Source: Oscillospiraceae bacterium
GTDB taxonomy: Bacteria > Bacillota > Clostridia > Oscillospirales > CAG-272
Direction: 5' to 3'
NCBI GenBank assembly: GCA_015065365.1
Contig: SVQL01000001.1
Location: 2,355-66,354 of the forward strand
Length of the DNA: 64,000 nt
In this document: piece by piece, positions 12,343 to 61,248 of the stretch
Layout: every line of letters starts with the position of its first letter
Numbering within the stretch: the first letter of the stretch is position 1
Notes under the pieces: model-generated
Databases searched by the model: none
What the model was told of the DNA's origin: nothing
The model's input: the letters and a program-made list of their open reading frames with translations, nothing else
Program-made: the position numbers and the translations under genes

Positions 12343-12371
12343 ATTATACCATGGTTCGGTTTTGCTTTCAA
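12343..12371 (-). promoter_or_regulatory. Candidate sigma-A promoter of the locus-A operon (TTGAAA-17-TATAAT, TG-extended -10)
   Basis: On the minus strand, TTGAAA is at 12371-12366, followed by a 17-nt spacer and TGGTATAAT with -10 at 12348-12343. About 120 nt upstream of ATG 12219. Confidence 0.5.
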
Positions 12372-12465
12372 TAAACGCAGGTTAAATGTAGGCAACAAAA
12401 AGTGATATTTGCCATAGAAATTATTTCCTTCTATTTGTTTATATTCACCATTTTATACTATGCTA

Positions 12466-12494
12466 TTGACAAATAGCGAATAGGGTTGTATAAT
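12466..12494 (+). promoter_or_regulatory. Candidate sigma-A promoter of the AraC-type regulator (TTGACA-17-TATAAT)
   Basis: Perfect consensus hexamers with a 17-nt spacer, 67 nt before ATG 12561. Same arrangement as 38553..38581. Confidence 0.6.
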
Positions 12495-12560
12495 TAACTA
12501 CGGTAATATAGTACAATTTACCAAAAAAACACATTTTTAGAAAAGCGGGGATAATGCAAA

Positions 12561-13514
12561 ATGAAGTTTACTCATTGCGATTATAAGTATAAAAGCGCAT
12601 CCACAAACGCCACTAAGGGCAATATACATTCCCGAAAGATGCGAGTCGCAAGCAGCCGCGCCGACTTAAAGCAGGATACCGAATACTACGCATCCTGGAT
12701 ATGCATTTACGCAACGGACAAGGATATAACCGAGTTTAATCTCGGAATTGACTATTCTTATCCCAATCAAACGATAAGAGACAGATGCGAGGGCAGACTT
12801 TTCCTTAATTTTATCGTAAAGGGTAAAGGAACTATTAACGGCGAGCCGTTTTCCGCGGGGCAATTCTTTTATACACGTCCTCTGCAAAAGCATACTATAC
12901 AGTCCGATCCCGACGATCCTTACGTCTCCGTTTGGATATACGTCCAGGGTGAGTACGCCAATTACGTAGAAAACGAATTGATTAAAAAAAGCAACAGTAC
13001 GACTATGACGTTAAACAATTATACCGACGTATTGGAGCTTACGAAAACCTTTCTTTTTACAATCAATCTCGCCGAAACGTCAACCTCTTATCTCAAGCAC
13101 CTGATAAATATCTACCTTTCTTATATATCTCCCAATAACGAGCTGGATTATCCCGAGATATTTGCTACTCAAAAAATAACGCGCCTCGTTTACGCCGCAA
13201 AAACGTATATCAGCAAAAACCTAAAAACAGTTACCGTTGCCGATCTCGCGGCTAATCAGCGCTATAACGTAAAATATTTTTCAAGGCTCTTCGCCTCTGC
13301 CACGGGCATGAAGCCCGCCGAGTATATAACCGACTGCAGAATTGAATGGGCGAAAAACTCGCTTGAGCACTCCGATCTCTCCGTCTCGGAAATATCCGAA
13401 GCAATCGGCTACGAGCACAGAAACGGCTTTGCCACCGCTTTCAAAAAAAAATACGGCTGCTCCCCTACTGAATACAGAAGAAAAACTAAAGGAAGCAACA
13501 AGGTTAGCGAATAA
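12561..13514 (+). CDS. AraC/XylS-family transcriptional regulator (cupin-like sensor + HTH)
   Basis: C-terminal HTH region YFSRLFASATGMKPAEYITDCRIEWAKNSLEHSDLSVSEISEAIGYEHRNGFATAFKKKYGCSPTEYRR. Divergent from the operon. Paralogue at 38648..39592. Confidence 0.85.
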   Translation: MKFTHCDYKYKSASTNATKGNIHSRKMRVASSRADLKQDTEYYASWICIYATDKDITEFNLGIDYSYPNQTIRDRCEGRLFLNFIVKGKGTINGEPFSAGQFFYTRPLQKHTIQSDPDDPYVSVWIYVQGEYANYVENELIKKSNSTTMTLNNYTDVLELTKTFLFTINLAETSTSYLKHLINIYLSYISPNNELDYPEIFATQKITRLVYAAKTYISKNLKTVTVADLAANQRYNVKYFSRLFASATGMKPAEYITDCRIEWAKNSLEHSDLSVSEISEAIGYEHRNGFATAFKKKYGCSPTEYRRKTKGSNKVSE

Positions 13515-13579
13515 CTCTACCTTGACTTATACCACCTCGCACAAGCAATGTACATTGGTTTTAAAAAAGCCGAAAGCAC

Positions 13580-13608
13580 TTGAAAATCGTTGCGCTCTGT
13601 GATATAAT
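13580..13608 (+). promoter_or_regulatory. Candidate promoter TTGAAA-17-TATAAT for the leaderless EEP gene
   Basis: Hexamers read directly at 13580-13585 and 13603-13608. AGGAGGAG RBS precedes ATG 13650. Confidence 0.45.
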
Positions 13609-13649
13609 TAATGTCGTTGTCATATACACCGTCAGGAGGAGCTTATAAA

Positions 13650-14459
13650 ATGAAAAACCAGTCGACAGCTACCAAAATCGATTGCTTAAAGATAATGTCC
13701 TACAATGTCTTGCTTGACTTTTACAAGGAAGGACGCGATCCCAGCTTTATCGTGGAGCTTCCCGCAAGCATCAGAGAGCAGGCGCCCGATATCCTCGGCA
13801 CGCAAGAGACCGTCACCGATATGCACGACCAATGCTTAAGCCTCTTAGAAGGATACTCCTGCTTCAAGGGCGAGGCATATACGGAAAACAACGGCCGCGG
13901 CAACTACGTTTACTGGCGAGCAGATAAATTCAATGTGCTTGAAGCAGGACATCGCTATATGAGCGATACTCCGACCGTGCGCTCAAAGTATGAAAAATCA
14001 AGAGAGTACCGCGGTTTTAACTACCTGTTTTTAGAAAGCTGCGAAACGGGAAACCGTTTTCTGTTTCTCAATCTCCACGCGGATTACCGTGCCGACGAGG
14101 ACACCCGAGTTCTTCAGCTTAAGACCGTAAACGCCTTTTTGAATGAAGAAAGATGGCAGGGGCTCCCGGCAATTATCGTGGGAGATTTCAACTCTACTGC
14201 GCATCAGGCAAGTATTTCCACCTTCTTGGCTGACAACCCGCGCCTTGCCATAACCTCCGAGGTTGCCGAGGTAACGGGCGACACCGGCGCTACTCTCGTA
14301 GGCGGATTTACAAGTAAGATCCCCTACGTGTTCGATTATATTTTCGTCACCAAGGACAAGATCAACACAAAGTATTATTCCGACATCGATAATATAAAGA
14401 ACGGTAAATATCCCTCCGATCATCTTCCCATAGTCGCGGAAATAGAATTATTCAACTGA
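13650..14459 (+). CDS. EEP family protein without signal peptide
   Basis: Start chosen at MKNQSTATK after the AGGAGG RBS. Motifs IMSYNVL, LGTQET, LNLHADY, VGDFNST, FDYIFVT and PSDHLPIV. Confidence 0.8.
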   Translation: MKNQSTATKIDCLKIMSYNVLLDFYKEGRDPSFIVELPASIREQAPDILGTQETVTDMHDQCLSLLEGYSCFKGEAYTENNGRGNYVYWRADKFNVLEAGHRYMSDTPTVRSKYEKSREYRGFNYLFLESCETGNRFLFLNLHADYRADEDTRVLQLKTVNAFLNEERWQGLPAIIVGDFNSTAHQASISTFLADNPRLAITSEVAEVTGDTGATLVGGFTSKIPYVFDYIFVTKDKINTKYYSDIDNIKNGKYPSDHLPIVAEIELFN

Positions 14460-29538: not shown

Positions 29539-30810
29539 TCAATATATATCGACTTTAGCGAGAACGGGTAGATGGTCTGAGGGATATTTGCCGTTTTTAA
29601 TATTATTTACGACGGTATAATATCTGGTGTATACTGTATCGGTTGTAACGAAAATATAATCGAAAACGTAGGGGTGTCTTTTAGTAAAATTGCCTTCTAT
29701 CAAGGTAGGTCCCGTATCTCCTTTGACCTTCGCAACCTTTGAGGTCATGCCAAAATTCGGATTATCCCCCATAAAGTCGAGAAGAGCACTGCCGCTCACG
29801 GTCGTAGTAGTATTAAAGTCACCGAGAACTATAACGGGAAGATCGTCCTTGTTAACCTTCTTGATAAGCGCCGCAAGCGCGTCTATCTGCTTAACTCTGA
29901 CTTCCTCAGTTGCCCGATAATCGAGGTGTGTATTGATGAAAAGGAATTGCTTTCCCGTTTTATTTTCTTCAAGAACGACGTAAGTCATGGTACGGTATTG
30001 GTTTGAGCCCTCGTATTTTGATTTCCTCTCGGGAGTATCGCTGAGGAAATAGTATCCCTTTCGCTTAACGGTAAATCTATCCTTTTTCCAATAGATATGG
30101 TTGCCCTCGTCAATGTCTCCCTTATAAAGGTCGTAGGTTTTGAGGTTTTCAATAAAGTATTTGCTATGCCCCGTACCGTCCTCCTGAGTTCCGAGAACGT
30201 CTACGTCATTCTCAAGAATAGTTGTAACCATTCTAAGTCTGCAATTTGACTCTCTGCCCTCTTTATTCATATCAAAGAGAATATTATAGGTCATCACGTT
30301 CAAGGAAGGACTGTTCAGATCTTGAATTTCATATCCCGATATTGAAATTTCCTTGCTTTCCTCGTCTCCCGTTGCTTTTGCAAGAAATGCGTCGATAACC
30401 TGACAAAGAGCGCTGTAATTCGCGCCCAACAAAACTATCTTTTTGCCGGTAACGCCGATCAAGCCGCTTTGATTTTGCGCGTACGCCGCCGCAATAGCCT
30501 CGTCGTCCCCATCAAGACCTATCAAAATCTCAGGGCGGTCTTCATTTGAGAGCTCCACCTCAAGGGTAGTGCCATAAAGCGCCTCCAGCTTTTTGTTCAA
30601 ATATACGAACGCCCTTCCTGATCCGGTAATGGCGCTGTTTGAGCATACGACCGTATAGTCCTTCAAGGCAACGCCGTTGATAATCAGCGGACCAGTCACC
30701 GTCGGCGCCTGAGTTTCGGTTTCCTCCGTATTGCCGTTGTTACAGCCAAGAACTGCGGGCAAAAGCATAATCAATGCCAACAAAAAGCTTAAAAATCTTA
30801 TTTTTCTCAT
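29539..30810 (-). CDS. EEP family lipoprotein (intact paralogue of 41..1350)
   Basis: Lipobox LLPAVLGC. ~170-aa N-terminal domain shared with 41..1350 (…LCQVIDAFLAKAT). EEP motifs VMTYNIL, LGTQED, INTHLDY, LGDFNT, FDYIFVT and PSDHLPVL. Confidence 0.85.
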   Translation of the reverse strand: MRKIRFLSFLLALIMLLPAVLGCNNGNTEETETQAPTVTGPLIINGVALKDYTVVCSNSAITGSGRAFVYLNKKLEALYGTTLEVELSNEDRPEILIGLDGDDEAIAAAYAQNQSGLIGVTGKKIVLLGANYSALCQVIDAFLAKATGDEESKEISISGYEIQDLNSPSLNVMTYNILFDMNKEGRESNCRLRMVTTILENDVDVLGTQEDGTGHSKYFIENLKTYDLYKGDIDEGNHIYWKKDRFTVKRKGYYFLSDTPERKSKYEGSNQYRTMTYVVLEENKTGKQFLFINTHLDYRATEEVRVKQIDALAALIKKVNKDDLPVIVLGDFNTTTTVSGSALLDFMGDNPNFGMTSKVAKVKGDTGPTLIEGNFTKRHPYVFDYIFVTTDTVYTRYYTVVNNIKNGKYPSDHLPVLAKVDIY

Positions 30811-30837
30811 TTTTTTCTCCTGTTTTGTATTTTAGAT

Positions 30838-30866
30838 ATATTACAATCATCCGTCAGAACTTTCAA
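30838..30866 (-). promoter_or_regulatory. Candidate promoter TTGAAA-17-TAATAT for the EEP lipoprotein gene
   Basis: Hexamers read on the minus strand at 30866-30861 and 30843-30838. Confidence 0.35.
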
Positions 30867-31004
30867 CGTCCGTTCCTGCGGCTGAATAATTTTCGAATTT
30901 TAACTTAAGCGGTATTTTCAATTCAAGGTTATAAATAAAATAATCGTTCTGTATTCATTACGGTATATTGGGGTGTTGTTCTAACGTTAAGTAAAATTAA
31001 ACAA

Positions 31005-31037
31005 CTGCACAAGCCCGTCAAAGACGGACTTGTGCAG
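31005..31037 (-). terminator. Rho-independent terminator after the GGCG-tail gene; copy of hairpin 2616..2648
   Basis: CTGCACAAGCCCGTC aaa GACGGACTTGTGCAG (15-bp stem, one mismatch). On the minus strand it is followed by TTGTTTAATTTT. Confidence 0.55.
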
Positions 31038-31131
31038 CATTCTGTAGCTATTAGTCTAATAGCATATCACACGTCACGAACTGTTGACATGTTTTAAAAC
31101 GTATTCAAAATATATTGCGAAGTTTTTTTAA

Positions 31132-32274
31132 TCAGTCTTCTTTTCTCTTGATTACGAGAGCCGCGCCGGAAGCGAGTGCTATCATAGCAACGCCTGCAAT
31201 TCCGATAGAGCCGCCGCATCCGCCTGCAGCTGCCTCAGTCTCGGGAGCAGGAGCAGCATCGGTGTTAGCCTCAGTATTTGCGTCGGTTTCGGGAGTCGTG
31301 TTGGTGTTGTTATTCTCGTTGTTATTCTCGTTGTTATTCTCGTTGTTCTCGCCGTTGTTCTCATTGCCGTTCTCCTCGCCGCCTTCTTCGCCGGCAGAGG
31401 GTACGTCTAATTCGGGAGCAGCAAGCTCGTGCTCGGTAACTGCAAGTCCCTTGTATACACTAACGTTGTGAACCTCCATAGTAAGGAACTGCTCGGGGGT
31501 AACGTTGTCGCGTCCGAAACGGATAACGTATTCCCAGTTATCGTAAGCCCAACCGTGGCTCTCCTTAATCATCTGTGCGTCAACAGGCTCATCTTCCATC
31601 GAGAAGATCAATTCCCATGCGCCGTCCTTAACGACGTAAACATTATAAACGGTAATGTTATATACGAATCCAGCAGTGGTTTCGGTATTCATAGCGCCTT
31701 CGGGATGCTCACCGGTACCCTCGTCCTTGATTTCGATAGCGTAGGTCTGGGTCAAAGCAGCGTCACCGGTAGGTCCGTCGTATTCAACCGTAAACTTGGT
31801 GCTATCGTATTTTCCGCCCGCGTTTACAACGTAGGACAGGGTGTTCTTACCGGGAGTAAAGAAGAAGCCGGTTCTCCAGTCGGGATAGTATCCTATCGCC
31901 TGATTTTCATCCTCAGCGCTGAGAGTGAATACGGTGGTATAAGCGCTCTGGTGCATAGTGAATCCACTACCGGGCAAACGTCCGCCGTAACCACTTGTGT
32001 GACCCTCGTTTTTGACATCAGTCTGGGGAATGTAGGTAAAGGACATTCCGTCCTCTGAGACCTCAACGTTAGCGCCTGCCCAAGTAGCCGTAACGCCGAA
32101 GTATTCCTTGTTGTTGAAGTCTACGTTAGCGATAAGCTCGCCGTCTTCAACTGCGCCGTAGTTTTCGGGGAGCGACACCTCGCTGTTCTCTGCGAATGCC
32201 GCGATTGCCATGAAGGGCACGGTCATAAGAGTAACCAATGCCAAAGCCAAAATTTTTTTCATTGTGTTTTTCAT
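31132..32274 (-). CDS. Secreted single-repeat lectin-like protein with N/E-rich linker and C-terminal GGCG-helix-KRKED signal
   Basis: Start at MKNTMKKILALALVTLMTVPFMAIAAFA (AGGAGG RBS; ORF-track start 32358 rejected). Repeat motifs YTTVFTLSAEDENQAIGYYPDWRTGFFF, QTYAIEIKDEG and VSVYKGLAV. The tail is AAGGCGGSIGIAGVAMIALASGAALVIKRKED. Confidence 0.8.
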   Translation of the reverse strand: MKNTMKKILALALVTLMTVPFMAIAAFAENSEVSLPENYGAVEDGELIANVDFNNKEYFGVTATWAGANVEVSEDGMSFTYIPQTDVKNEGHTSGYGGRLPGSGFTMHQSAYTTVFTLSAEDENQAIGYYPDWRTGFFFTPGKNTLSYVVNAGGKYDSTKFTVEYDGPTGDAALTQTYAIEIKDEGTGEHPEGAMNTETTAGFVYNITVYNVYVVKDGAWELIFSMEDEPVDAQMIKESHGWAYDNWEYVIRFGRDNVTPEQFLTMEVHNVSVYKGLAVTEHELAAPELDVPSAGEEGGEENGNENNGENNENNNENNNENNNTNTTPETDANTEANTDAAPAPETEAAAGGCGGSIGIAGVAMIALASGAALVIKRKED

Positions 32275-32320
32275 AAAAAACCTCCTTAAAATTTTATTGA
32301 AAAAAATTTGTTTACTGTTT

Positions 32321-32449
32321 TTAGAATGGGTCTTCCGCCCAGTTATCGAGACTGTCATTTCCGAATATTACGGAAAATATCATAATATCCTTCGTATCAA
32401 CAGTAACGACTCTCATTTCGGGAGAAACGTATTTTTTATTGCTTTTCAT
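32321..32449 (-). CDS. Conserved 42-aa micro-protein (MKSNKKYVSPEMRVVTVDTKDIMIFSVIFGNDSLDNWAEDPF), paralogue of 5922..6047
   Basis: ATG at 32449 with AGGAGG 9 nt upstream; TAA at 32321-32323. Same position between the EEP gene and the GGCG-tail gene as in locus A. Confidence 0.6.
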   Translation of the reverse strand: MKSNKKYVSPEMRVVTVDTKDIMIFSVIFGNDSLDNWAEDPF

Positions 32450-32463
32450 TTTTTCATTCCTCC

Positions 32464-33300
32464 TTATCTGTAATAAATTAACTTTGCTATAACCGGAAGG
32501 TGGTCTGACGGATACGGTGTGTAATCAGCATCGTCGTACTCATTGTTTATTACCGAGTATTCAACAGCTTGCATATTTTCATCGGTGTAAAGGATATAAT
32601 CAAATATCCATTCTTCACGCTTTTCGTGCTCCGTTATAAGCGTACCGCCCATATCATGCTTGATAATTGCACTATCCTCAGACGTAAGTAGGCCGCTGTT
32701 ACCAGTAAGCTCAGCAATAGTCTGCTTTCCGGGAGTAGCATTCATATCTCCCATAACTATCTGATTGGAATAGTCAGCTGACATATTGTCAAGCCATCTG
32801 CGCAGAAGTCTCGTCTGATAGTCACGAAGAAGCTCATCATCGGGGTAATTAGAGCCTGTACCCTTTCCATAATGCAAATGAGTGTTTACGACGAGATACT
32901 GTACACCCTTATCATCTTCCAAAACCACGTATCGGAAGAATCTGCCTATTTCGTCAAAGACGGATATGTCAAAGTTACCCTTAGTATCCAAGGTTAAATC
33001 CGCGCCTTTAGCGTCTACGTCCTTATACTCCTTTGCAAGCTTTTTGTAGTACCCTATGCCGCTGGTGACAAGCGTAAATTTATCGCTCTTGTAGTAGATT
33101 GCAAGATTCTCATTTCCGTTTCCGCCGGACTTGTAGCAAGAATATCCTTTAAGCGCCGACAAATAACTGTCCCAATCACTGTCGTCCTCTTGCAATCCGA
33201 GCACATCGGGATTGAACGTCATAATAGTATCTACAACCTTGGAAGGATCTCTGCCCTCCCAACCGTTATCATCGTCCTTGCCCTCGATATTATAGGTCAT
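32464..33300 (-). CDS. EEP phosphoesterase domain ORF, probably the C-terminal part of a lectin-EEP fusion reached by a -1 shift from 33306..36830
   Basis: Motifs MTYNIE, LGLQED, VNTHLHYG, MGDMNAT, FDYILYT and PSDHLPVI. No RBS or signal peptide of its own. The frame is open upstream back to the T7 run and aligns with the A-locus giant (…FF…SLTAMTYNIEGKDDD vs …FF…YINVLSYNLEYKGDD). Confidence 0.75.
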   Translation of the reverse strand: MTYNIEGKDDDNGWEGRDPSKVVDTIMTFNPDVLGLQEDDSDWDSYLSALKGYSCYKSGGNGNENLAIYYKSDKFTLVTSGIGYYKKLAKEYKDVDAKGADLTLDTKGNFDISVFDEIGRFFRYVVLEDDKGVQYLVVNTHLHYGKGTGSNYPDDELLRDYQTRLLRRWLDNMSADYSNQIVMGDMNATPGKQTIAELTGNSGLLTSEDSAIIKHDMGGTLITEHEKREEWIFDYILYTDENMQAVEYSVINNEYDDADYTPYPSDHLPVIAKLIYYR

Positions 33301-33305
33301 CGCTG

Positions 33306-36300
33306 TCAGGGAACAAGTGTATTCACCTGTTCCCTTTGTTGAAAAAAATTCAAAAGGTTATCTCTTTTTTCGTATGGGCTGTATTTCTTTCCGTCAACCG
33401 TTTCTACCTCATACTGATACGTCAAGCCATTCTTAACAGTTCCGCGGACGTCGCTCAAGTCGTTATATGCAGCCATAGCGATGTCGGCTACCGTTCTTGA
33501 ATTGTTCTCCGAATCGTAATCGGAATAAATATATTCCACGTTTTCCCCGTTCACAATCTTTACGTAAAGAATTGCCGAGAAGGCTCTCTCGTAGTTTTGA
33601 GATTTTATATTAGTAATAGCGCAATTTATCTTGTAATAATCGCCATCCTCCAAAACTGTCAGCGCGTCGATTTCAAGATACTTAACGCCTTCTCTGTCGG
33701 AAGCATCAAGTGCCGCCTTAGTAAACTCAACGTCGGTAAGATAATCGGTAGGAGTGATCAACATTCCCATAATAACGTTATCCTCGCCGTATTTTGCCTT
33801 AAAGGTGTCGATATAGCTCTTGTAGATAAGACCTGTAAAGCGAAGTCCCGTAGGCTCGTCTATACGAATAGACGCTCCGTTTATAAGGTCTACCACGGAA
33901 GGAAGATTTCCGCTTCCCTTATAGACCTTTAGATCGCTAACGGTTACGACACCGTCCTGATTTCCAACGTTAGAATTACGGTAGAAACGCAATGCAAGCT
34001 CGGGATCCGTCGTACTCCAGTTCAGTGCAGTCGCAGGATCATTAATCAATTCATCGGGGTTAAGTGCGCGCACCAATACCCACTTGTTGTCCTGCAATAC
34101 CCAAAGATTGTATATAGTACAGTCAAAATCACTCGTAGACGTGCCGTTATCAGATATCTGAATTGCATACGTCTGAGTAAGAGCCTTAGTTCCGCCGTAG
34201 GTTCCCTCTACACCGGCAACAACTGCGTTGTTTTTGCCTTCGTTCGTACTCTTGTTAAATCTGTATGCGTTCTGACCGGGAGTCAAAATAAAGCCTGAAT
34301 TCCAGTCGGGGTAAAATCCTATCTCTTGATTTGCATCCGAAGCCTCCAAGGTAAATACAACGGTATACGAGCTCTTGAGTATCGGATAACGGTTGACAGC
34401 CATATCCTTACCCCATGCGCCCGATTTGCCATCTTCTATTCTCATCTCGATCGTGTGCTTATTCAAGATGGTCTCGTTTATTCCAGCCCAGCTGTCACCG
34501 GTGTTCCATATACCGGGCGTACCGTTGAAGTCAGCATAATAGAGCAGCTCGCCGTCATTAGCATCGGAATAAGACTTGGGCATGGGCACGCTTATCTTTC
34601 CGGCAGTAACTCCAAGTCCCTTATAAACGTCCAAATTACTGAGAGTTACGTACTTGCCCTCTTGTGATTTATCCAAGCCGTTACGGTAGAATCTAAGCAC
34701 GTATTCGTAATTATCTGCCGTATCGGTGTTCCACTTCAAATTTTCTTCAATCGCAGCAGCTGCCGCTTCGTTTCCGGGAGAGCTGAACTTAAATATAAGA
34801 ACCCACTTACCGTCAATCGCCACGTAAAGATTATACTCGGTAATATCGTATTCGAAGTTGGCTACATTGCCGTCGTTCTCGTTTCCGCTATCCATGATCT
34901 CAATAGCGTAGGTTTGCTTCAAGGCCTTCGTTCCGTTGTAGCTTCCCTTTATCTCGCTTCCGTTTTTATCAACGAGAGTTTCACCCAATTTACCAACACC
35001 GTATCTAAAGCTGTCAGCACCCGGCTTCAAAATAAATCCGGTGTTCCAATCGGGATAAAATCCTATCTCCTGATCCGCATTTTCAGCCTCTACCGTAAAT
35101 ATCGCGGTATAGGAGCTTTGAAGCATTCTATAAGTAGGATAATGCAGCTCAGCGCCCCAAGCAGCGCCCTCCGTAACGATTGCACCGTTCGCATCATAGG
35201 TAGTGGGCACCAAATTAATAGAGCGGTCCGTCACATTATAACGGTTCTCATTCATTCCCGCCCAAGCCTTTTGGGGAGTCCACAATCCACCGTTATCGTT
35301 TGTGAAGCTTGCGTTTATAATACACTCAACATCCTGACCGTAGGAACCGAACGCGCTAACAAATCCTTCACTTACCGAAAGTCCGGTATAAACGCTCAAA
35401 TCGCTAACGGTCATACCCAAATTTTGAGTTGTATCCTGTCCGTTACGGAACAAACGAAGCACGAATTCGTAATTGCTTGAATTCCACGTCAAAGCATTTT
35501 TGATAGCAGCTGCGTGCTCGGAATCCTTAAGGCTGAACAGCTTAACCCATTCGCCATCCTGAGCCACCCAAAGGTTATATTCGGTGATATTGTACTTAAA
35601 ATTCTCTTTTGCTCCGCCGTTTTCATCGCCTTCATCCTTGACTTCGATCGCGTAAGTCTGCTTCAATGCCTGCGTTCCGGCATATCTTCCCGAAAAGATA
35701 GTACTTCCGGTCGATCCACCGGCGTATTTACCGTATCTGTAGCTATCCTGACCGGGCTTCAAAATAAATCCGGTGTTCCAATCGGGGAATAGACCGAGCT
35801 CTTGATTTGCGTCTTCAGCCTCCAAGGTAAATACTACCGTATAAGCACTCTGGAGCATACGGTAATCGGGATACGGTAAGTCATCGCCCCAAACTGCGCC
35901 CTGTGTAACAAGATCACCGTTTGAATCATACATGGTAGGTATCAACATAACCGAGCTTCCGTCAGAGGAAGGACGCTTTGTCTTCATACCCGCCCAACTT
36001 TCTCCCGGGCTCCAAAAATCTCCTGTGCCCTTAAAATTTGCAGTATAGATAAGCTCACCGGTAGGGGGAGCCACCTTTCTGTTCGTAACAGCAAGACCAC
36101 TGTAAACGTTACAGTTGCTGACTATCAGCGACTTTTTTACTTGAGACTCGTCAGTTCCGTTACGCCAGAAGCGAAGCACGTATTCATAGTCACCGCTTGA
36201 CCAATTCAACGCAGAGTCAGGGTTGCAAGTCAATTCACTGCCTGAAAGCGAATACAAGAGCGTCCACTTGCCGTCAAGAATTACCCAAAGCTTATAAGCG

Positions 36301-36830
36301 GTAATCTTATAGTTTCCTCTGCCGGTTCCGCTGTCCTCAACCTCAATAGCATAGGTCTGCTTCAAGGATTTCGTTCCGTCATACGTTCCTTCTATACCCG
36401 CGTAGGTAGTACCTGCTCTATCTCTGCCGAACCTGAAGCTATCCTGACCGGGCTTTACGATAAAGCCTGTTTTCCAATCAAGGAATAGACCTACCTCCTG
36501 GTTCGCATCTTCAGCTTCCACGGTAAACACTGTGGTATAAGCGCTTTTAGACATCTCATATTTTGAAGTATCCAGTGCGCCGCCCCAAACGGATCCTTCT
36601 TCTCTTTTGAAAGTAAACTTCAAATCTATGGAGCGTCCGTCTTCGGAAATCTGGGGATCTATGCCTCCCCAACCACCTATGGGAGCATCGGAATTCCACG
36701 CTCCGCCGCCGTTAAAGTTGATCTCATCAATCAAATCTCCGACTTCCGCACTCGCGGGCAAAATTATCATCGGCATTGCCATCATCAAGACTAGCGCAAA
36801 GCATAAAAGCTTTTTTGCAATCTTTTTCAT
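33306..36830 (-). CDS. Secreted protein with four ~220-aa lectin-like repeats plus beta-sandwich domain (zero-frame product 1174 aa)
   Basis: Signal peptide MKKIAKKLLCFALVLMMAMPMIILPASA. Four repeats carry AxWG, YTxVFTxEAEDANQExGxxPDWNTGFIxKPG, QTYAIE and xVY[KST]G. GASIRIDEPTGLRF marks the domain also found in 6066..10433. Confidence 0.85.
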   Translation of the reverse strand: MKKIAKKLLCFALVLMMAMPMIILPASAEVGDLIDEINFNGGGAWNSDAPIGGWGGIDPQISEDGRSIDLKFTFKREEGSVWGGALDTSKYEMSKSAYTTVFTVEAEDANQEVGLFLDWKTGFIVKPGQDSFRFGRDRAGTTYAGIEGTYDGTKSLKQTYAIEVEDSGTGRGNYKITAYKLWVILDGKWTLLYSLSGSELTCNPDSALNWSSGDYEYVLRFWRNGTDESQVKKSLIVSNCNVYSGLAVTNRKVAPPTGELIYTANFKGTGDFWSPGESWAGMKTKRPSSDGSSVMLIPTMYDSNGDLVTQGAVWGDDLPYPDYRMLQSAYTVVFTLEAEDANQELGLFPDWNTGFILKPGQDSYRYGKYAGGSTGSTIFSGRYAGTQALKQTYAIEVKDEGDENGGAKENFKYNITEYNLWVAQDGEWVKLFSLKDSEHAAAIKNALTWNSSNYEFVLRLFRNGQDTTQNLGMTVSDLSVYTGLSVSEGFVSAFGSYGQDVECIINASFTNDNGGLWTPQKAWAGMNENRYNVTDRSINLVPTTYDANGAIVTEGAAWGAELHYPTYRMLQSSYTAIFTVEAENADQEIGFYPDWNTGFILKPGADSFRYGVGKLGETLVDKNGSEIKGSYNGTKALKQTYAIEIMDSGNENDGNVANFEYDITEYNLYVAIDGKWVLIFKFSSPGNEAAAAAIEENLKWNTDTADNYEYVLRFYRNGLDKSQEGKYVTLSNLDVYKGLGVTAGKISVPMPKSYSDANDGELLYYADFNGTPGIWNTGDSWAGINETILNKHTIEMRIEDGKSGAWGKDMAVNRYPILKSSYTVVFTLEASDANQEIGFYPDWNSGFILTPGQNAYRFNKSTNEGKNNAVVAGVEGTYGGTKALTQTYAIQISDNGTSTSDFDCTIYNLWVLQDNKWVLVRALNPDELINDPATALNWSTTDPELALRFYRNSNVGNQDGVVTVSDLKVYKGSGNLPSVVDLINGASIRIDEPTGLRFTGLIYKSYIDTFKAKYGEDNVIMGMLITPTDYLTDVEFTKAALDASDREGVKYLEIDALTVLEDGDYYKINCAITNIKSQNYERAFSAILYVKIVNGENVEYIYSDYDSENNSRTVADIAMAAYNDLSDVRGTVKNGLTYQYEVETVDGKKYSPYEKRDNLLNFFQQREQVNTLVP
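33309..33348 (-). promoter_or_regulatory. Candidate -1 recoding cassette: slippery U UUU UUU, 7-nt spacer, 11-bp hairpin
   Basis: mRNA sense: AAU UUU UUU CAACAAA GGGAACAGGUG AAUA CACUUGUUCCC UGA. T7 run = 33342-33348 (A7 on the + strand). Hairpin = 33309-33334. The zero-frame stop is at 33306-33308. Confidence 0.45.
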
Positions 36831-36866
36831 GTTTTTCTCCTTTCAAATAAAATTACTATTTGGGAG

Positions 36867-38342
36867 TTAACCTAAATTGTTTATTACTTTGAGTTCCTTG
36901 TTAATAGTGTTTCTGTTCATAACAAGGTAGATTTGCATGTTCTGATTTCTCTCCATTATCATTTTACGAGGAATCGTATATGCAGTAGTATCGAATACGA
37001 TGCCTATGTCAGTCGTTCTCGAATCGTATATCAAGTCAACGAGCTTGGTATCTCCCTCGTCGTCAAGATATCTGAGCTTCAATACGCTTTCATAATAGAA
37101 AGGTACGAGCGTTTGCTTACCAAGACTTGCCATTACCTCGAACGCCGCCCCCGTCTGATCGTACTTCGCAGTATTCGTGTTGGGGATTGCGTACAGAATA
37201 GCAATGTTGTGGACGTAAGAATAATATTCCTTCTGATCCACGTCGTACTTAGGATAAGGCAACGGAGCAAAGCCGTCGGTCATGTCAGTAAAGTTTCTCG
37301 CGGTATAGAAGTAACCGATGGAGAACAGCATCTCGCCGTCAGCAAACTTCTGCACGAGTATGGAAGAGTGCTTACTGTTATAAAGCTGAGTGTCTCCCGC
37401 ATTGTTTCCGTATTCCCCTGCGCCCTCAATGTGCATAAGGTTATACAGGCGTCCCATAACATCTATTGAACGCTCGTCGCCAATGGCAAGAACTGCCTTA
37501 CCCTCGTTATCTCGCTGGATAATAGTTCCGCCTGCTCCCACATACCAGCCAACTGTATTAGCGTCGGTGCAAAGGAAGCCGAACTGGTCTTCAATATCTA
37601 CCGCCTGGCTATTGTTCAAATCCTTCCACATATTCTTTGAAAGCGTTGCCGCTTCATCGATAGTCCACTTGCCCTCAAGAACCATCGTTCTGAGGTTTAC
37701 GTACGCATCGTCGCCGTAGTTTTCTGCAAGAAGCTTCTTATTTACGAATATGGAGCCCGTGTTGCTTACCATATCTATACCAACGTCACCCGCCATTACG
37801 TAGTTATGTCCGTTTAGTTTAGCGGCGTTCATGTAATCCTGCGCCCACCAGTCGCCCGTAAAGTCAAGGTACTTGGAGTCGTCAAGGCTCTTAAACCAGC
37901 CTTCAAGAACGAGAGCCATTCCGTTCCACTGAACGAGCTGATATGCGTCAAACTCCGTGGACTCCGCCTGAAGAAGAGGACGGATATCCGTTGCCGCATT
38001 ACTCGATTCCGAGCCGGTGTCGATAAAGTTTATCTGAAGATTGAGATAATCCTCTGCCTTTACGTTTCTCTTATAAAGCTCGAGAGAAATAAAATCTCCG
38101 TCCTCCATAGAGCCGTTCATGTCGTAGAAGTATTCAGCAGCATTCGACGCGGTCGTAGTCTGCCAAACGTTAATTTCTTCTCCCTCGAATTTGACGCCCT
38201 TAACCTTGTCACTCAGCAAAAGACCGTCGTCCGCTTCGGTAGTAACCGCAGCCTCGGTCTCATTCACAGAGCCACCGACGCAAGATACGATAAGCGGGCA
38301 CAACATCAAGATTGCCAATAAAAGCACCATTATTTTTTTCAT
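36867..38342 (-). CDS. Extracellular solute-binding lipoprotein (sugar-type), orphan; first gene of the locus-B operon
   Basis: Lipobox LCPLIVSC. ~490-aa family-1 SBP-like sequence. No cognate permease or ATPase genes nearby. Confidence 0.55.
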   Translation of the reverse strand: MKKIMVLLLAILMLCPLIVSCVGGSVNETEAAVTTEADDGLLLSDKVKGVKFEGEEINVWQTTTASNAAEYFYDMNGSMEDGDFISLELYKRNVKAEDYLNLQINFIDTGSESSNAATDIRPLLQAESTEFDAYQLVQWNGMALVLEGWFKSLDDSKYLDFTGDWWAQDYMNAAKLNGHNYVMAGDVGIDMVSNTGSIFVNKKLLAENYGDDAYVNLRTMVLEGKWTIDEAATLSKNMWKDLNNSQAVDIEDQFGFLCTDANTVGWYVGAGGTIIQRDNEGKAVLAIGDERSIDVMGRLYNLMHIEGAGEYGNNAGDTQLYNSKHSSILVQKFADGEMLFSIGYFYTARNFTDMTDGFAPLPYPKYDVDQKEYYSYVHNIAILYAIPNTNTAKYDQTGAAFEVMASLGKQTLVPFYYESVLKLRYLDDEGDTKLVDLIYDSRTTDIGIVFDTTAYTIPRKMIMERNQNMQIYLVMNRNTINKELKVINNLG

Positions 38343-38427
38343 AAATACCTCCTGAATTTACTTTGTTTTTTACGGTGAAGCGTGTTGCGCCACAGTCAAA
38401 ACGCAGCTCGCTGATATTCACGATACC

Positions 38428-38456
38428 ATTATACCGCGATTACCCGTCTTTTTCAA
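38428..38456 (-). promoter_or_regulatory. Candidate promoter of the locus-B operon (TTGAAA-17-TATAAT)
   Basis: On the minus strand, TTGAAA is at 38456-38451 and TATAAT at 38433-38428. Same hexamers and spacing as 12343..12371. Confidence 0.5.
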
Positions 38457-38552
38457 CAAGCATAAGTTTCCAATTATACACTAAAAAGTAATATTGGGTG
38501 CACAAAACTTGTGGCTTTTTTTTGTAAATTTTCACTATTATAGTTTTTTCTA

Positions 38553-38581
38553 TTGACAAACTGAAACCAATACTGTATAAT
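38553..38581 (+). promoter_or_regulatory. Candidate promoter of the second AraC-type regulator (TTGACA-17-TATAAT)
   Basis: Perfect consensus, 67 nt before ATG 38648, identical in geometry to 12466..12494. Confidence 0.6.
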
Positions 38582-38647
38582 CTACTTGTGCAAACAAGCC
38601 ATATTTACACAAATTTATTTATTTTGAAGATGGAAGTAAAATACAAA

Positions 38648-39592
38648 ATGAAGTTCACTCATTACGACTACAAGTGCATATATTACGCGCCGTCAAATAA
38701 TCCCAAGAAAAAATATGACTCAAAGTTTTTTATTGCCAGTAACCGAGCCGAAATAAATCTCGGTCTTGAATATCATACGTCCTCTATATCCATCTATACC
38801 GAGGACAAGGAATTTGAGCACTTCAAGCTCGGAGTCGACTTTTCCCCTCCCGGCTCTCTTCTTAATGGCAGATGCGAGGACAGACTATTTCTCAACTTTA
38901 TACTGAAAGGAAAAGGGCGAGTAAACGGCGTGCCTTTTTCCGCAGGTCAGTTTTATTATACTATCCCCCTACAAACGCATACAGTAGAAACCGATCAAGA
39001 CGATCCGTTCGTTTCCGCATGGATAGCCATTAACGGAACGTACGCGCAGCATGTCGTTAACGAGCTTAATAAAAAAAGCTCACAAAGACTTATGTCCTTG
39101 GAGCACCGAGCAGATATACTTAAATTAACCAAAATCTTCATATATGAGATCAATTTAGGAGAAACGTCCATCTCATACCTCAAGTCTATCATAGACATTT
39201 ATCTTTCGTACATAGTACCAAACAGCAGTCCGCAGCCCCCCGAATGGGTTGGAACGGAGAAAGCCGCTCAATTAATAAGAGAGTCAAGAAATTACGTAAG
39301 AAAAAATCTTAAATCCGTTACGGTCGCAGATCTTGCCGAGGTGCAGCACTACAACGTAAAATATTTTTCCCGCGTATTTACCGAGGCTATGGGCATGAAA
39401 CCGCTTGAATATATCACGAATTGCAGAATGGAATGGGCAAAAAACTCCCTTACACACTCAAATCTTTCCATTCCGGAAATAATGGAAGCGATAGGCTACG
39501 ATCACAGAAACGGCTTTACTACCGCCTTTAAGAAAAAATACGGCTGTCCGCCTGCGGAGTACAGAAGAAAAACGAAGCGCACCTCCTCCTGA
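38648..39592 (+). CDS. AraC/XylS-family transcriptional regulator, paralogue of 12561..13514
   Basis: Start at MKFTHYDYK (aligned with MKFTHCDYK of the paralogue; the ORF-track start 38588 would lie at the predicted TSS). HTH region YFSRVFTEAMGMKPLEYITNCRMEWAKNSLTHSNLSIPEIMEAIGYDHRNGFTTAFKKKYGCPPAEYRR. Confidence 0.85.
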   Translation: MKFTHYDYKCIYYAPSNNPKKKYDSKFFIASNRAEINLGLEYHTSSISIYTEDKEFEHFKLGVDFSPPGSLLNGRCEDRLFLNFILKGKGRVNGVPFSAGQFYYTIPLQTHTVETDQDDPFVSAWIAINGTYAQHVVNELNKKSSQRLMSLEHRADILKLTKIFIYEINLGETSISYLKSIIDIYLSYIVPNSSPQPPEWVGTEKAAQLIRESRNYVRKNLKSVTVADLAEVQHYNVKYFSRVFTEAMGMKPLEYITNCRMEWAKNSLTHSNLSIPEIMEAIGYDHRNGFTTAFKKKYGCPPAEYRRKTKRTSS

Positions 39593-43209: not shown

Positions 43210-44682
43210 TTAATCAAATAAACCGTTTATCATGTCAAGCGTTGCGCTTACAAGATGCTCTCCGCTCTCATATCCGACGTAACCCGATGATACGTACGCG
43301 CTGTAATGTCCTGCATCCTGCGCCTCCTTCGTAGGAAGGTAAGCAAGAGCTCCGTTAGTCAGCTGAGCAATAAACGTCTGCGCAGCGGCGCTTCTCGCTC
43401 TTATCTGGTTTCCGTAATCGAGGAACAGCTCAAAGGGATTGGTTACGAACACTACGTCTCCAAGTCTTACGGCGTGTATTTCCATCTCAACGGTATTGCA
43501 GTATTCCTGTACCTCGTAACGCTGAAGCGTTCCCGTATGCACGTAAAGCTCTGCGCTATCCATATAGTTAAGAACCTTTCTTCCCTTGAAAAACTCGCGT
43601 ATTCTGTTCTCCGCGACAGCCTTTTCAGTGTCTGTAACACGGCGCAAGGGTAAAGAAAGATTTCTTGCGCTATGCTTAAATTCGGCATCCAGCGTTATCT
43701 CGTCTATTTCCTCTATCGCCATCTCTATCTCGTTGAATATTCTTCTGCCTATCTTCCAAGTTCCCTTTACGTCAAACATCGAAGGATCTGCTCTTCTGAA
43801 TTTGGGATTATTTCTGATTACGTTAGGATCTTTTATGGGTGTTTCCGGCTCTACCCATCTTACAAGGTCACGGGGGCACTGATCTCCCGCCGCAGCGCAA
43901 ATGGGAAGGAGCATAATATCGTTTCCGTACTTTTCTCTCAAAAGTATCTTTACTTTACCCCAATAGTCCGAGGATATAACGCTTCTCTGCTCCATTACCT
44001 GAGCGGGACAAGCTATATTCGCCACGACTCCCGTCATTTTCTGATTTTCGTCGTATATGAACAGCATCTCAATTCCGCTGTCGTTACCGCCCTCAAGCGC
44101 GGTAAAGGTTGCCGTATCAACGTCGCCCCACATTTTTGCCGTTCCGTCCGTATAGCACACTCTGCGGCTCATTCCGACAGCTGCCCGTCCAAATGCCGCC
44201 GCATATCCTCCGAGTGCTCTGTTCTCCCAAGCTGCATCCGCCGCATTGGCAATGGCATCTGCAAGAAATTCAAACGCATCGTCAGGACTCATTACGTCGG
44301 TTGATTCAACCTCCGGGATATACTCGCAGTCCTCGGGCATAAATGCGCCCAGCATGTGAAATGCTCCCGAAGGGGATTTTTTCAGCGGGCTCTTTCTTCT
44401 GTACGTATAAGAGTTATGTATATGAACACTCGATATTATAATGTTACTTTTGTTTATATCCGCGCTCTTGATTCGCTCTCGTACGCACTTAACAAGCTCC
44501 TCTGTAATAACGACTATATCGCAAGAGCAAAATATTGCCTGCTCGCCGTTTGCTTCTATTGCTAACGCCGTAACCGTTATAGGCGTTTCCACCTCATCTG
44601 TCGCACGCTCGAAAAACTCTCCGTCAAGAGCTATTTTCTGCTTTGGCGTTATATCCGTTTCTGCCCAACCGAATTTTATCAT
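43210..44682 (-). CDS. Conserved hypothetical hydrolase-like protein, paralogue of 22504..24003
   Basis: Start at MIKFGWAETDITPKQK (AGGAG RBS). Long identical blocks with the paralogue (ATFTALEGGNDSGIE, SSDYWGKVKILLRE, GDQCPRDLVRWVEPETPIKDPNVIR, GHYSAYVSSG). Confidence 0.4.
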   Translation of the reverse strand: MIKFGWAETDITPKQKIALDGEFFERATDEVETPITVTALAIEANGEQAIFCSCDIVVITEELVKCVRERIKSADINKSNIIISSVHIHNSYTYRRKSPLKKSPSGAFHMLGAFMPEDCEYIPEVESTDVMSPDDAFEFLADAIANAADAAWENRALGGYAAAFGRAAVGMSRRVCYTDGTAKMWGDVDTATFTALEGGNDSGIEMLFIYDENQKMTGVVANIACPAQVMEQRSVISSDYWGKVKILLREKYGNDIMLLPICAAAGDQCPRDLVRWVEPETPIKDPNVIRNNPKFRRADPSMFDVKGTWKIGRRIFNEIEMAIEEIDEITLDAEFKHSARNLSLPLRRVTDTEKAVAENRIREFFKGRKVLNYMDSAELYVHTGTLQRYEVQEYCNTVEMEIHAVRLGDVVFVTNPFELFLDYGNQIRARSAAAQTFIAQLTNGALAYLPTKEAQDAGHYSAYVSSGYVGYESGEHLVSATLDMINGLFD

Positions 44683-44906
44683 ATCTTCTCCTTTAAGCTT
44701 TAAGATTTTTACTGAATTATAGCACACTCATACCGCTTTTTCAATACTTTTGAAAGAAAAAGTTACTTTTTTTAATATGCGTTATTCACAGATATATTTT
44801 ATTCTTAAACTAATTCTTCAAAGCGAATTTATATTAAAACCCGTACATACGGAATATCGTCTCCACCATCAAGAAAATTGAAAACTTCAAACGGTTCAGC
44901 CGCTTG

Positions 44907-54746: not shown

Positions 54747-55634
54747 TTATTCCTCGTCTCTGTATCCGAAGTTTCCGACAGTTCTCGCACTCTCGCGCCA
54801 GTTTTCCTTAACCTTTACCCAAAGATTAAGATATACCTTCGTACCGAAAAGCTTTTCGAGGTCGTCTCTTGCGTAGCTTCCTATAAGCTTGAGCGCCGCG
54901 CCGTTCTTACCTACGATAATTCCCTTGTGCGATACCTTCTCGCAGAATATCTCCGCGCGAATGCTTATAAGGCTTCCCTCGTCCTTGAACTCCTCGATTA
55001 CGACGGCAGTTCCGTGGGGGATCTCCTTGTTGAGCGTTCTGAGTATCTTTTCGCGGATTATCTCTGCCGCAATCTGTCGCTCGGGCTGATCCGTCACCAT
55101 ATCGTCGGGAAAAAACCACTCCGACTCGCTAAGGAATTTCGAGCACTCGTCAAGAAGCTCGCCTACGTTCTTGCCGCTTCTTGCGCTTATCGGAACAAAC
55201 GCCTCAAAGCTATGCTTGTCCGCATATTTCTTTATAGTTTCAGCTATCTGCTCACGGTTGCAGGTATCTATTTTGTTGATCGCGATGAGCGCGGGAATAC
55301 CGCTCTTTTTGAGATACGAGATTACGTTTTCCTCAACCGTGCTTATATCCTTCGTCACGTCAACGACGAGCACTACGGCATCAGCATCGCGCATTGTGCT
55401 ATCCGCCTCCTTGACCATATACTCGCCAAGCGTATTCTTGGGGCTGTGCATACCCGGCGTATCAAGGAACACAAATTGCTCCTCGCCGCGTGTGTGTATT
55501 CCCGTAATTCTGTTTCTCGTCGTCTGTGGCTTGCTTGAAACTATTGCCACCTTCTCTCCGAGAATTGAGTTCATAAGCGTTGATTTTCCAACGTTCGGTC
55601 TGCCTACTATTGCTATAAATCCCGTCTTTTTCAT
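54747..55634 (-). CDS. era: GTPase Era
   Basis: GRPNVGKSTLMN (G1), DTPG (G3), NKID (G4) and a C-terminal KH domain. Confidence 0.9.
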   Translation of the reverse strand: MKKTGFIAIVGRPNVGKSTLMNSILGEKVAIVSSKPQTTRNRITGIHTRGEEQFVFLDTPGMHSPKNTLGEYMVKEADSTMRDADAVVLVVDVTKDISTVEENVISYLKKSGIPALIAINKIDTCNREQIAETIKKYADKHSFEAFVPISARSGKNVGELLDECSKFLSESEWFFPDDMVTDQPERQIAAEIIREKILRTLNKEIPHGTAVVIEEFKDEGSLISIRAEIFCEKVSHKGIIVGKNGAALKLIGSYARDDLEKLFGTKVYLNLWVKVKENWRESARTVGNFGYRDEE

Positions 55635-56116
55635 TACTTTACTCCAAGTCCCATTTTTTCAAGTATTTCACTCTGTCGCGCTCTCATTTCCCTGTCGTCC
55701 TCCTCGGAGTCAACGTGGTCGTAGCCGAGAAGGTGAAGCATTGAGTGTACCGTCAGAAACGCGATTTCTCTGTCAAAGGAATGTCCGAATTCCTCCGCCT
55801 GCGCTCTTGCTCTCTCAAGAGAGATCACAATGTCGCCAAGCGCTATCTCAGGCTCGTCCGTAGGCGGCTCCTCACTTCTCTCAAAATCGGTAAGCGGAAA
55901 GGACAGCACGTCCGTCGCTTTATCTATATTTCGGTAGCTGTTGTTTATCGCGCGTATTCCCTCGTCGTCTACGAAGGTCACCGAAATCTGTACGTCATTC
56001 TGAAATCCCTCGTAGTCAAGCGTCGCCTTTACCGCCTCGCGTAGCAGCATCTTCTGCTTGTAGGTAACGTCCTCTCCCGATTCGTTCATAAAGTATATCA
56101 TAAGTCCCGTTTTCAT
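55634..56116 (-). CDS. ybeY: rRNA maturation RNase YbeY
   Basis: HSMLHLLGYDH zinc-binding motif. Confidence 0.9.
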   Translation of the reverse strand: MKTGLMIYFMNESGEDVTYKQKMLLREAVKATLDYEGFQNDVQISVTFVDDEGIRAINNSYRNIDKATDVLSFPLTDFERSEEPPTDEPEIALGDIVISLERARAQAEEFGHSFDREIAFLTVHSMLHLLGYDHVDSEEDDREMRARQSEILEKMGLGVK

Positions 56117-57141: not shown

Positions 57142-57144
57142 TCT

Positions 57145-60031: not shown

Positions 60032-60060
60032 TTCTAATTAAATTCTATCTTAAATTCTCC

Positions 60061-61245: not shown

Positions 61246-61248
61246 AAA

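Follow-up and report, generated by a model that had tools for sequence, protein, structure and literature searches.

The question raised by locus B of contig SVQL01000001.1, from an Oscillospiraceae bacterium (CAG-272), is how a giant secreted repeat protein and the EEP-family domain encoded just behind it in another reading frame are expressed: as two genes, or as one protein that arises by a change of frame. We analyzed a 64,000-nt stretch of this contig, referred to here as the window (assembly GCA_015065365.1, positions 2,355..66,354 of the forward strand), which holds locus B and a related locus A (286..14459). The initial annotation had listed for locus B a four-repeat giant plus an EEP; both are present, but they form neither one open reading frame (ORF) nor simply two genes, the EEP lying in the -1 frame, and what was overlooked is a conserved -1 frameshift cassette that joins the two. 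Sequence comparison makes it likely that programmed -1 ribosomal frameshifting yields both a binding-only giant and a giant-EEP fusion.

In locus B, 5 nt separate the stop codon of the giant from the called ATG of the EEP. Read in the giant frame, the junction is AAU UUU UUU CAA CAA AGG GAA CAG GUG AAU ACA CUU GUU CCC UGA, and its features are as follows.

33306..36830, minus strand: giant 0-frame product of 1174 residues, with signal peptide, four repeats and C-terminal domain; stop codon TGA at 33306..33308
33342..33887, minus strand: C-terminal domain of the giant (about 180 residues; ASIR...SPY..R..L..FF), recognized by profile and ending at the putative slip site
33342..33348, minus strand: slippery heptamer U_UUU_UUU, in phase with the giant frame (AAU UUU UUU)
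33308..33335, minus strand: 12-bp hairpin AGGGAACAGGUG-AAUA-CACUUGUUCCCU, 6 nt past the heptamer
32464..33341, minus strand: -1 frame continuation, consisting of the linker STKGTGEYTCSLTA and the EEP domain (called EEP ORF 32464..33300; PF03372, E 3e-16)

The hairpin (-19.4 kcal/mol; z -5.4 for a 71-nt segment) has a motif that is unique within the window, and the -1 frame is open from the slip site through the EEP. A -1 slip would give ...NLLNFF-STKGTGEYTCSLTA-MTYNIEG..., a product collinear with fused homologs (...FFEE...SISVMTYNIR...; '..FF....S[IL][ST]VMTYNI'). The predicted trans-frame tryptic peptides are DNLLNFFSTK and GTGEYTCSLTAMTYNIEGK, and the corresponding 0-frame peptide is DNLLNFFQQR. 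A +1 shift at CCC UGA was rejected, as it leads into a dead frame.

In the proposed mechanism, ribosomes on the giant mRNA would meet U_UUU_UUU and then the 12-bp hairpin. Most would probably terminate a few codons on, releasing a binding-only giant, and a fraction would slip to -1 and read into the EEP, producing a giant-EEP fusion with the architecture that is hard-wired in locus A and many homologs. The EEP domain would then not be an independent gene.

Is this arrangement conserved? Junction DNA came from 12 sequences representing about ten lineages (the window, L009, L010, L016, L017, L019, L020, L021, L023, L025, L026 and L027), with two fused genes, locus A and L012, as controls. The -1 layout, the in-phase heptamer and a hairpin occur together in 10 of the 12, and an in-phase X_XXY_YYZ heptamer is found in 10 of the 11 split junction sequences, L010 being 1 nt off. 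L009, L016, L017, L019, L020, L021 and L023 carry the canonical hairpin with the EEP in -1, as does the window. Heptamers of this canonical class are U_UUU_UUU, or U_UUU_UUC in L016 and L020, and the 0-frame stop follows 1-10 codons on, often within the loop. L026 shows the same in-phase heptamer, hairpin and early 0-frame stop, and its contig ends before the EEP. L025 and L027, which have a different EEP subfamily, combine G_GGU_UUU or U_UUU_UUC with an unrelated 11-12-bp hairpin, and their EEP is again in -1. The catalytic SYNIRN motif of L027 is encoded in the -1 frame, after the slip site but ahead of the GTG that is the sole called start, so that translation could include it only through a frameshift. 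The fused controls have neither T-run nor hairpin. Hairpins of the other lineages range from -14.7 to -20.6 kcal/mol, with spacers of 5-7 nt.

The same pattern was seen at the protein level. Profile A4 of the C-terminal domain matched 3399 representatives of 50%-identity clusters (E<=1e-3, 1.84 billion proteins); among the best 150 of these, 28 stop immediately past 'FF' or with the residues that the hairpin encodes in frame 0 (GQREQ-stop, LGEQ-stop), and fused proteins account for at least 36. Over six lineages, identity in the stem core is 91%, compared with 63% for flanking coding DNA, and pairing is kept in 94% of stem cells (7 sequences) versus 39-60% in slid controls. All 4 giant and all 8 EEP variants of the 90% clusters retain the split, as does the L007/L009 relative, whose giant is 90% identical. 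Rfam gave no match for the whole window at the gathering threshold or for the junction at a relaxed E-value, and none of the papers that we searched describes this frameshift element. Scans of metagenome contigs with the hairpin pattern gave no match; as the pattern does match the JGI loci, that collection evidently lacks these contigs.

Both heptamer types found at these junctions are recognized shift sites (PMC5009743). Several points nonetheless weigh against frameshifting. In E. coli, A_AAA_AAG shifts more readily than U_UUU_UUU (PMC5009743), and in L027 no more than 1-2 nt separate heptamer and hairpin. The hairpin shows little covariation, with 8 of 12 pairs invariant and a compensatory double change at a single pair, and some of the stem conservation could come from the -1-frame peptide (GTG...CSL). 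In L010 (RGIG4231 metagenome-assembled genome (MAG), 8400..8470) the run is T7 and the EEP lies in +1, beyond reach of a -1 shift; its relative L026 (1560..1638), about 89% identical in DNA over a junction-bearing segment of about 0.6 kb, has T8 and the canonical layout, which marks L010 as an assembly error or a mutant. Finally, the analysis being computational, we infer frameshifting itself from sequence alone.

Could the T-run act at the nucleic-acid level instead, through transcriptional slippage by the polymerase or through DNA phase variation from T7 to T8? Such a change in locus B would fuse the frames exactly, L010 and L026 differ by one T at the run within otherwise similar DNA, and homopolymers are known slippage and contingency sites. 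We consider this explanation quite unlikely, however. Runs of T6-T7 ending in C (L016, L020, L027) and the four U of G_GGU_UUU (L025) are too short for polymerase slippage, yet they are canonical ribosomal heptamers and all are in phase, and a downstream hairpin is the arrangement of ribosomal -1 sites. No copy of a hypothetical T8 fusion turned up among 15 billion proteins, which speaks against frequent DNA phase variation, and the cluster variants are split without exception. Minority variants would not show in consensus assemblies, and the T-run may switch at a low level.

Slightly less probable again, and in our view very unlikely, is that giant and EEP are two ordinary genes, the EEP being translated from the ATG at 33300 by termination-reinitiation and either remaining cytoplasmic or being exported otherwise. 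Gene callers annotate two genes on every contig, and a stop and an ATG 5 nt apart could permit coupling. However, the called ATG is the conserved structural Met of the VMTYNI motif, which fused homologs also have; the EEP ORF has no Shine-Dalgarno sequence and no signal peptide of its own, and the 3' arm of the hairpin lies just upstream of the ATG. From the heptamer onward, all -1 lineages examined have an open -1 frame, and in L027 the sole called start is downstream of the catalytic motif. Two ordinary genes would also leave unexplained the conserved phase of the heptamer, the hairpin, and the absence of both from fused genes.

The initial annotation had named decay of one copy as an argument against two functional loci. 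The genes of locus B are instead under purifying selection, with ratios of nonsynonymous to synonymous substitution (dN/dS) of 0.11-0.25 when compared with L009, the relative with the 90% identical giant: SBP (an SBP-like lipoprotein, from solute-binding protein) 0.13, giant 0.17, EEP 0.24, small ORF (sORF) 0.11 and GGCG-tail protein 0.25, at dS 0.34-0.77. That the split is a frameshift mutation in a decaying pseudogene copy of the locus or of its EEP can be all but dismissed: locus A, in this same stretch, does have two broken accessory EEP genes, and frameshifts thus occur in this genome or assembly, but those breaks have neither heptamer nor hairpin, whereas the locus B EEP keeps its conserved family motifs and the dN/dS given above, and about ten lineages and 28 cluster representatives are split at the identical site.

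The two broken genes deserve a brief description. The terminal EEP lipoprotein of locus A (286..1350 and 41..448, minus strand) has a 1-nt deletion, GATGGCG-AAGATAC, relative to an intact 437-residue ortholog in L019; the break lacking heptamer and hairpin, it is a pseudogene or an assembly error. The front lipoprotein-EEP of locus A is split into two ORFs (10532..11170 and 11167..12219, minus strand); an intact 608-residue homolog exists in L013, and the gene is wholly absent from the otherwise about 97% identical L019.

The junction shares its in-phase X_XXY_YYZ heptamer, 5-7-nt spacer, stable hairpin and early 0-frame stop with dnaX, copA, csoS2, the IS3 orfAB genes, phage tail G/GT and retroviral gag-pol. 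As in the logic of a short 0-frame and a long -1 product in IS3 orfAB, phage tail G/GT and gag-pol, the -1 product would be the longer one, here by a catalytic domain, and the element recurs in homologs. Unlike in the known -1 cases, the host gene encodes a Sec-secreted multi-repeat binding protein of gut Clostridia and is not one of replication, transposition or phage; the heptamer is U-rich, not A_AAA_AAG, and there is no Rfam match. The family also differs from known cases in alternating between hard-wired and frameshift-dependent fusion, even between orthologs in close relatives (locus A of the window versus L019).

Is locus B, as a whole, a counterpart of locus A? The parts that the initial annotation had listed are all found where it placed them, by ORF map, translations and family scans, and except for the AraC regulator they lie on the minus strand. 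Besides the junction, they are the following.

38648..39592, plus strand: AraC-family regulator (PF12833, E 2e-21), paralog of the locus A regulator at 12561..13514
38553..38581, plus strand: AraC promoter-like site TTGACA-17-TATAAT, matching the consensus at 12 of 12 positions
38428..38456, minus strand: promoter-like site of the SBP-giant-EEP-sORF-GGCG operon, a consensus match only (11 of 12)
36867..38342, minus strand: orphan SBP-like lipoprotein of 491 residues, lipobox IVSC, assigned by homology to the locus A SBP
36747..36830, minus strand: signal-peptide coding region of the giant, identical at 74 of 84 nt to locus A 10350..10433; candidate 5' recombination anchor
33879..36746, minus strand: four tandem repeats of about 235 residues, predicted beta-sandwiches (residues 29-257, 256-496, 499-752 and 758-984; hidden Markov model domain matches)
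32321..32449, minus strand: sORF of 42 residues directly after the EEP, with ribosome-binding site AGGAGG
31132..32274, minus strand: GGCG-tail protein, with signal peptide, one B-type repeat, N/E-rich linker, GGCGGSIG, transmembrane helix and KRKED
31004..31038, minus strand: intrinsic terminator with 16-bp stem at the operon end; homologous hairpin in locus A at 2613..2665
29539..30810, minus strand: separately transcribed EEP lipoprotein of 423 residues, intact (PF03372, E 9e-13)

Locus B contains no beta-helix gene and no front lipoprotein-EEP. Every one of its components has a homolog in locus A, as expected for what had been described as a rearranged paralog of the same system, and the first position of the SBP, given as one of the differences, is also found in the relatives L009 and L010. 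The label 'discoidin', applied to the N-terminal module of locus A, corresponds to sub-threshold Pfam matches only (E 0.05), and the replacement of that module by a fourth repeat is accordingly a conjecture. The AraC regulators are 59% identical in protein sequence (blastp E 5e-136), rising from 45% at residues 1-60 through 59% at 60-200 to 66% in the helix-turn-helix (HTH) part. Identity is 79% for the sORFs (locus A copy at 5922..6047), 45% for the giant-borne EEPs and 25% for the SBPs (E 5e-36). The GGCG proteins can be aligned only N-terminally (35% over about 150 residues, signal peptide included) and at the C-terminal linker and tail (34% over about 120 residues). The locus B EEP lipoprotein is 37-44% identical to the locus A EEPs and has orthologs in L010, L012, L016 and L017. 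On these grounds, locus B is almost certainly a paralog of locus A, and probably a functional one; the two copies may have two ligand specificities, as had been suggested.

At the DNA level the similarity of the two loci is a mosaic. The hand count of 74 of 84 identical nt in the signal-peptide regions proved exact, and the ribosome-binding site is also identical between the two giants. By blastn, identity is 89.9% over 99 nt at the 5' end of the giants, 79.5% over 327 nt covering the 3' end of the EEP, the sORF and the GGCG signal peptide, and 82% over the tail; the terminator and the 5' end of the EEP lipoprotein are also similar, and almost no similarity is detectable in the mature bodies. 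Both intergenic regions share an AraC promoter core, CTATTGACAAA...TGTATAAT (about 12460..12500 in A and 38553..38581 in B, plus strand), near-consensus in each. A comparison of the A and B intergenic regions for common AraC operators gave nothing beyond this core and the terminator.

Does this mosaic reflect exchange of cassettes or gene conversion, as had been proposed from the sequence of the window? Independent support comes from L019, in which a close relative carries the ortholog of locus A. Flanking DNA is 93-97.5% identical between L019 and the window, and the AraC regulator, SBP and beta-helix protein are 96.5%, 96% and 98.6% identical in protein sequence. The body of its giant is unrelated: homology is lost in the signal-peptide region (window about 10345) and regained some 130 nt ahead of the EEP stop (window 6197). 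These breakpoints lie in segments common to A and B, which supports the cassette idea. The L019 giant is frameshift-split, and the giant of locus A in the window is fused. One repeat of the L019 giant (8936..9554) shows 90% DNA identity to repeat 1 of the adjoining GGCG-tail gene (window 5145..5766), indicating recent transfer of a repeat between giant and GGCG genes. Giants of other genomes differ at the corresponding position in the number (1-5) and type of their repeats, and the N-terminal module may be present or absent. With high probability, the part of the giant that carries the repeats is a swappable cassette; recombination in the conserved signal-peptide region on one side and at the 3' end of the EEP and sORF on the other would exchange it. 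Separately, in L026 (1..1638) the sORF and a GGCG-type signal peptide and repeat are joined to a giant C-terminal domain with the frameshift cassette, an arrangement that is either a natural recombinant or a chimeric assembly.

Alternatively, the loci could be old duplicates that have diverged where they stand, with strong purifying selection on targeting or regulatory sequences alone keeping signal peptide, sORF and tail alike. Across the family, the signal peptide is conserved, at 67% identity over 15 giants compared with 42% in the first mature domain, a family-specific conservation that also sets aside the concern that the A/B likeness is confined to generic signal peptides, and of the 8 codons that differ between A and B there, 4 carry non-synonymous changes. 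As a sole cause we consider selection unlikely: the comparison of L019 with the window shows a body replaced between near-identical flanks with breakpoints in just these segments, and the 90% identity of a giant repeat to a GGCG-gene repeat, the chimeric arrangement of L026 and the variable repeats at one position point the same way. Selection and recombination are not mutually exclusive.

What do the proteins of locus B look like? The repeats of the giant are 38-50% mutually identical, counting in the single repeat of the GGCG protein, which is 41% identical to giant repeat 2. They have no informative sequence match in Pfam or PDB: a deeper profile found none in PDB, and the other searches gave chance-level matches only (E 0.09-0.55). 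An AlphaFold2 model of a repeat (27-sequence alignment) is all-beta with a mean confidence (pLDDT) of 91.4, and Foldseek relates it to BoNT Hc-N, GH16, legume lectin and Emp47p at probability 1.0, with TM-scores of 0.31-0.49 and identities of 5-14%; the GH16 ExDxxE motif was not seen in the repeats. The model suggests a concanavalin-like beta-sandwich. Of the earlier description as a four-repeat lectin, the four repeats therefore stand, and, with TM-scores of only 0.3-0.5, 'lectin' is a label for resemblance at the level of the fold. The C-terminal domain (G-A-S-[IV]-R...SPY..R..L..FF) corresponds to no Pfam family, and it occurs in many architectures beyond this system. Word-indexed searches with the sORF and the C-terminal domain returned 3 matches each, and an index-free profile search was needed.

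The locus B regulator matches PF12833 (76 bits) and PF00165 (53 bits), a double HTH. The cupin family PF02311 matches the locus A regulator (E 4e-5) and not that of locus B, the N-terminal parts being 45-59% identical between the copies. The locus B SBP has no Pfam or NCBIfam match of its own and appears to be an SBP by homology to the locus A SBP and to the relatives of that protein; of five SBP relatives in other loci, three match PF13416 SBP_bac_8 (best E 2.9e-8), and two match PF01547 SBP_bac_1. Its best PDB profile match, an arabino-oligosaccharide SBP, reaches only E 0.16, and with an AlphaFold2 model of pLDDT 30 from a 2-sequence alignment the SBP fold is putative. It is termed orphan because genes for an ATP-binding cassette (ABC) permease or ATPase were found neither in the two loci nor among the scanned ORFs. 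ABC permease genes were likewise absent from the annotations of L001 and L019, and no sortase-like gene occurs among the window genes examined; seven ORFs at 55634..63093 lay outside both scans.

The EEP domain matches PF03372 over its full length (1-225) at 60.3 bits against a cut-off of 24.5. Residues H141, D185, N187 and D266-H267 are invariant in the alignment, and the TYN and LQE motifs are visible. The GGCG tail is conserved across loci and tripartite: a low-complexity linker and GGCG[GS]S precede a hydrophobic helix, and the end is basic; in L009 (7169..8338) it reads GGYGGS instead of GGCGGS, so that the Cys, here replaced by Tyr, is not invariant. LPXTG/NPXTG and MYXO-CTERM/GlyGly-CTERM sorting signals have the same order of linker, short Gly/Cys motif, hydrophobic helix and basic end, and the tail may likewise anchor the protein to the cell. 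It differs from sortase- and exosortase-type signals in its distinct GGCG motif and in that the window genes examined include no sorting enzyme. Matches of the tail to NPXTG/LPXTG models are sub-threshold (E 0.05-0.5), the best (NPXTG, 14 bits against a cut-off of 23.5) covering the transmembrane and tail part only, and NCBIfam has no family at threshold for the isolated tail or for the sORF.

Wherever the region is present, the sORF comes after the EEP. This holds for 8 other loci, including L012 and L027, which have no GGCG gene; the sORF family (window 32321..32449 and 5922..6047, minus strand; L012, L016, L017, L019, L027) tracks the EEP and not the GGCG gene. Its N-terminal motif is K-K-Y-x-x-P-x-[LM]...D-[IV]-[IM]..S, and most members also have a C-terminal D-N-W-x-x-D-P-F. 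The YxxPxL-like motif resembles the leader peptides of ribosomally synthesized and post-translationally modified peptides; the sORF as precursor of such a peptide was dropped, as no maturase genes lie nearby. The sORF product may inhibit or chaperone the EEP, or it may be a regulatory leader peptide.

Which substrate might the giant and EEP act on? In a profile search the best solved relatives of the EEP were 3g6s and 3l1w, the two top matches and uncharacterized members of the EEP family, followed by 4c1r/3mpr, that is BT3783 (E 4e-13, about 250 residues). BT3783 is an EEP-family sugar phosphatase of the Bacteroides thetaiotaomicron polysaccharide-utilization locus for yeast mannan and acts on phosphorylated mannan glycans (PMC4978465). 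The EEP fold family and a gut-bacterial glycan-utilization locus are shared with it; the similarity is distant, and the present EEP differs in being fused or frameshift-fused to lectin-like repeats in a Gram-positive host without SusC/D. With Gram-positive polysaccharide-utilization loci, locus B shares an AraC gene divergent from an operon that starts with an SBP-like lipoprotein, a large secreted enzyme with repeated modules predicted to be beta-sandwiches, and glycoside hydrolase (GH) and sugar-catabolic neighbors. It differs from them in encoding a phosphoesterase, not a glycoside hydrolase, in having no ABC permease among the ORFs scanned, in repeats that match no carbohydrate-binding module or Pfam family, and in the additional conserved sORF and tail-anchored repeat protein.

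From these comparisons we tentatively propose a phospho-glycan role for locus B, at somewhat less than even chances. The giant and EEP would bind a phosphorylated glycan and dephosphorylate it or cleave phosphodiesters in it, and this would feed the adjacent GH39/GH36 and sugar-acid catabolic genes. Two points count against this: the substrate is a guess from a distant relative, and Nocturnin/CCR4 nucleases score nearly as well as BT3783, with sphingomyelinases and ExoIII far weaker than Nocturnin/CCR4. An EEP that is a secreted nuclease, for DNA scavenging or as a toxin, with the sORF as its cytoplasmic inhibitor or immunity peptide, would agree with those PDB relatives and with sub-threshold NCBIfam matches to exonuclease III and ExeM/NucH. 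The acidic sORF tightly follows the EEP even without the GGCG gene, and a small acidic ORF close behind an enzyme is the layout of nuclease-inhibitor pairs. We nevertheless hold a nuclease to be improbable: the best solved relatives include a sugar phosphatase, the context is one of carbohydrate catabolism, PADLOC defense models gave 0 matches for 7 proteins, and other EEP lipoproteins have no sORF. As an overall explanation of locus B, the combination of paralogy, frameshifting, cassette exchange and phospho-glycan role is the best available and seems fairly probable.

How widespread is the system? The exact locus B giant is MBE6706035.1, from a Ruminococcaceae/Oscillospiraceae MAG, and occurs on 18 contigs of independent metagenomes. 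The repeat family is rare, with 28 matches in 5.8 billion clusters. A search of 185,579 species genomes found 7 loci in 4 MAGs, all Eubacteriales/Clostridia and one of them from roe deer colon; four loci occur together in one of these MAGs, and the 64-kb window holds only A and B. The host of locus B is an uncultured herbivore-gut Oscillospiraceae/Ruminococcaceae bacterium. Genes for Era, RecO, MutS2 and PRPP synthase identify the window as chromosomal, and sugar-catabolic genes lie between and around the two loci, the neighbors including GH39, GH36, GDSL, KDPG aldolase, PfkB and MR_MLE. A 505-residue ORF without Pfam match (43210..44727, minus strand), located between an M20 peptidase and a GDSL esterase, is kept in all locus B contigs.

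Bacterial cellular genes with a known conserved -1 frameshift site are few (dnaX, copA, csoS2 and some others). There is perhaps an even chance that the junction of locus B represents an undescribed, widespread recoding element in secreted lectin-like giants of gut Clostridia, one that sets the ratio of scaffold to scaffold-phosphoesterase in a cassette-swapped locus with the sORF as partner of the EEP, be it inhibitor or chaperone. If so, the logic of gag-pol would be applied to an extracellular bacterial enzyme, and dozens of diverged family members would considerably enlarge the known range of bacterial recoding. Two unrelated hairpins together with natural fused controls would make a convenient system for studying how recoding is gained and lost, and hundreds of gene pairs annotated as 'EEP' and 'hypothetical giant' in gut metagenomes are probably mis-called as two genes. 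For the biology of these bacteria, the locus would point to a Gram-positive attack on phosphorylated glycans, with binding modules that may be exchanged as cassettes and duplicated under paralogous regulators.

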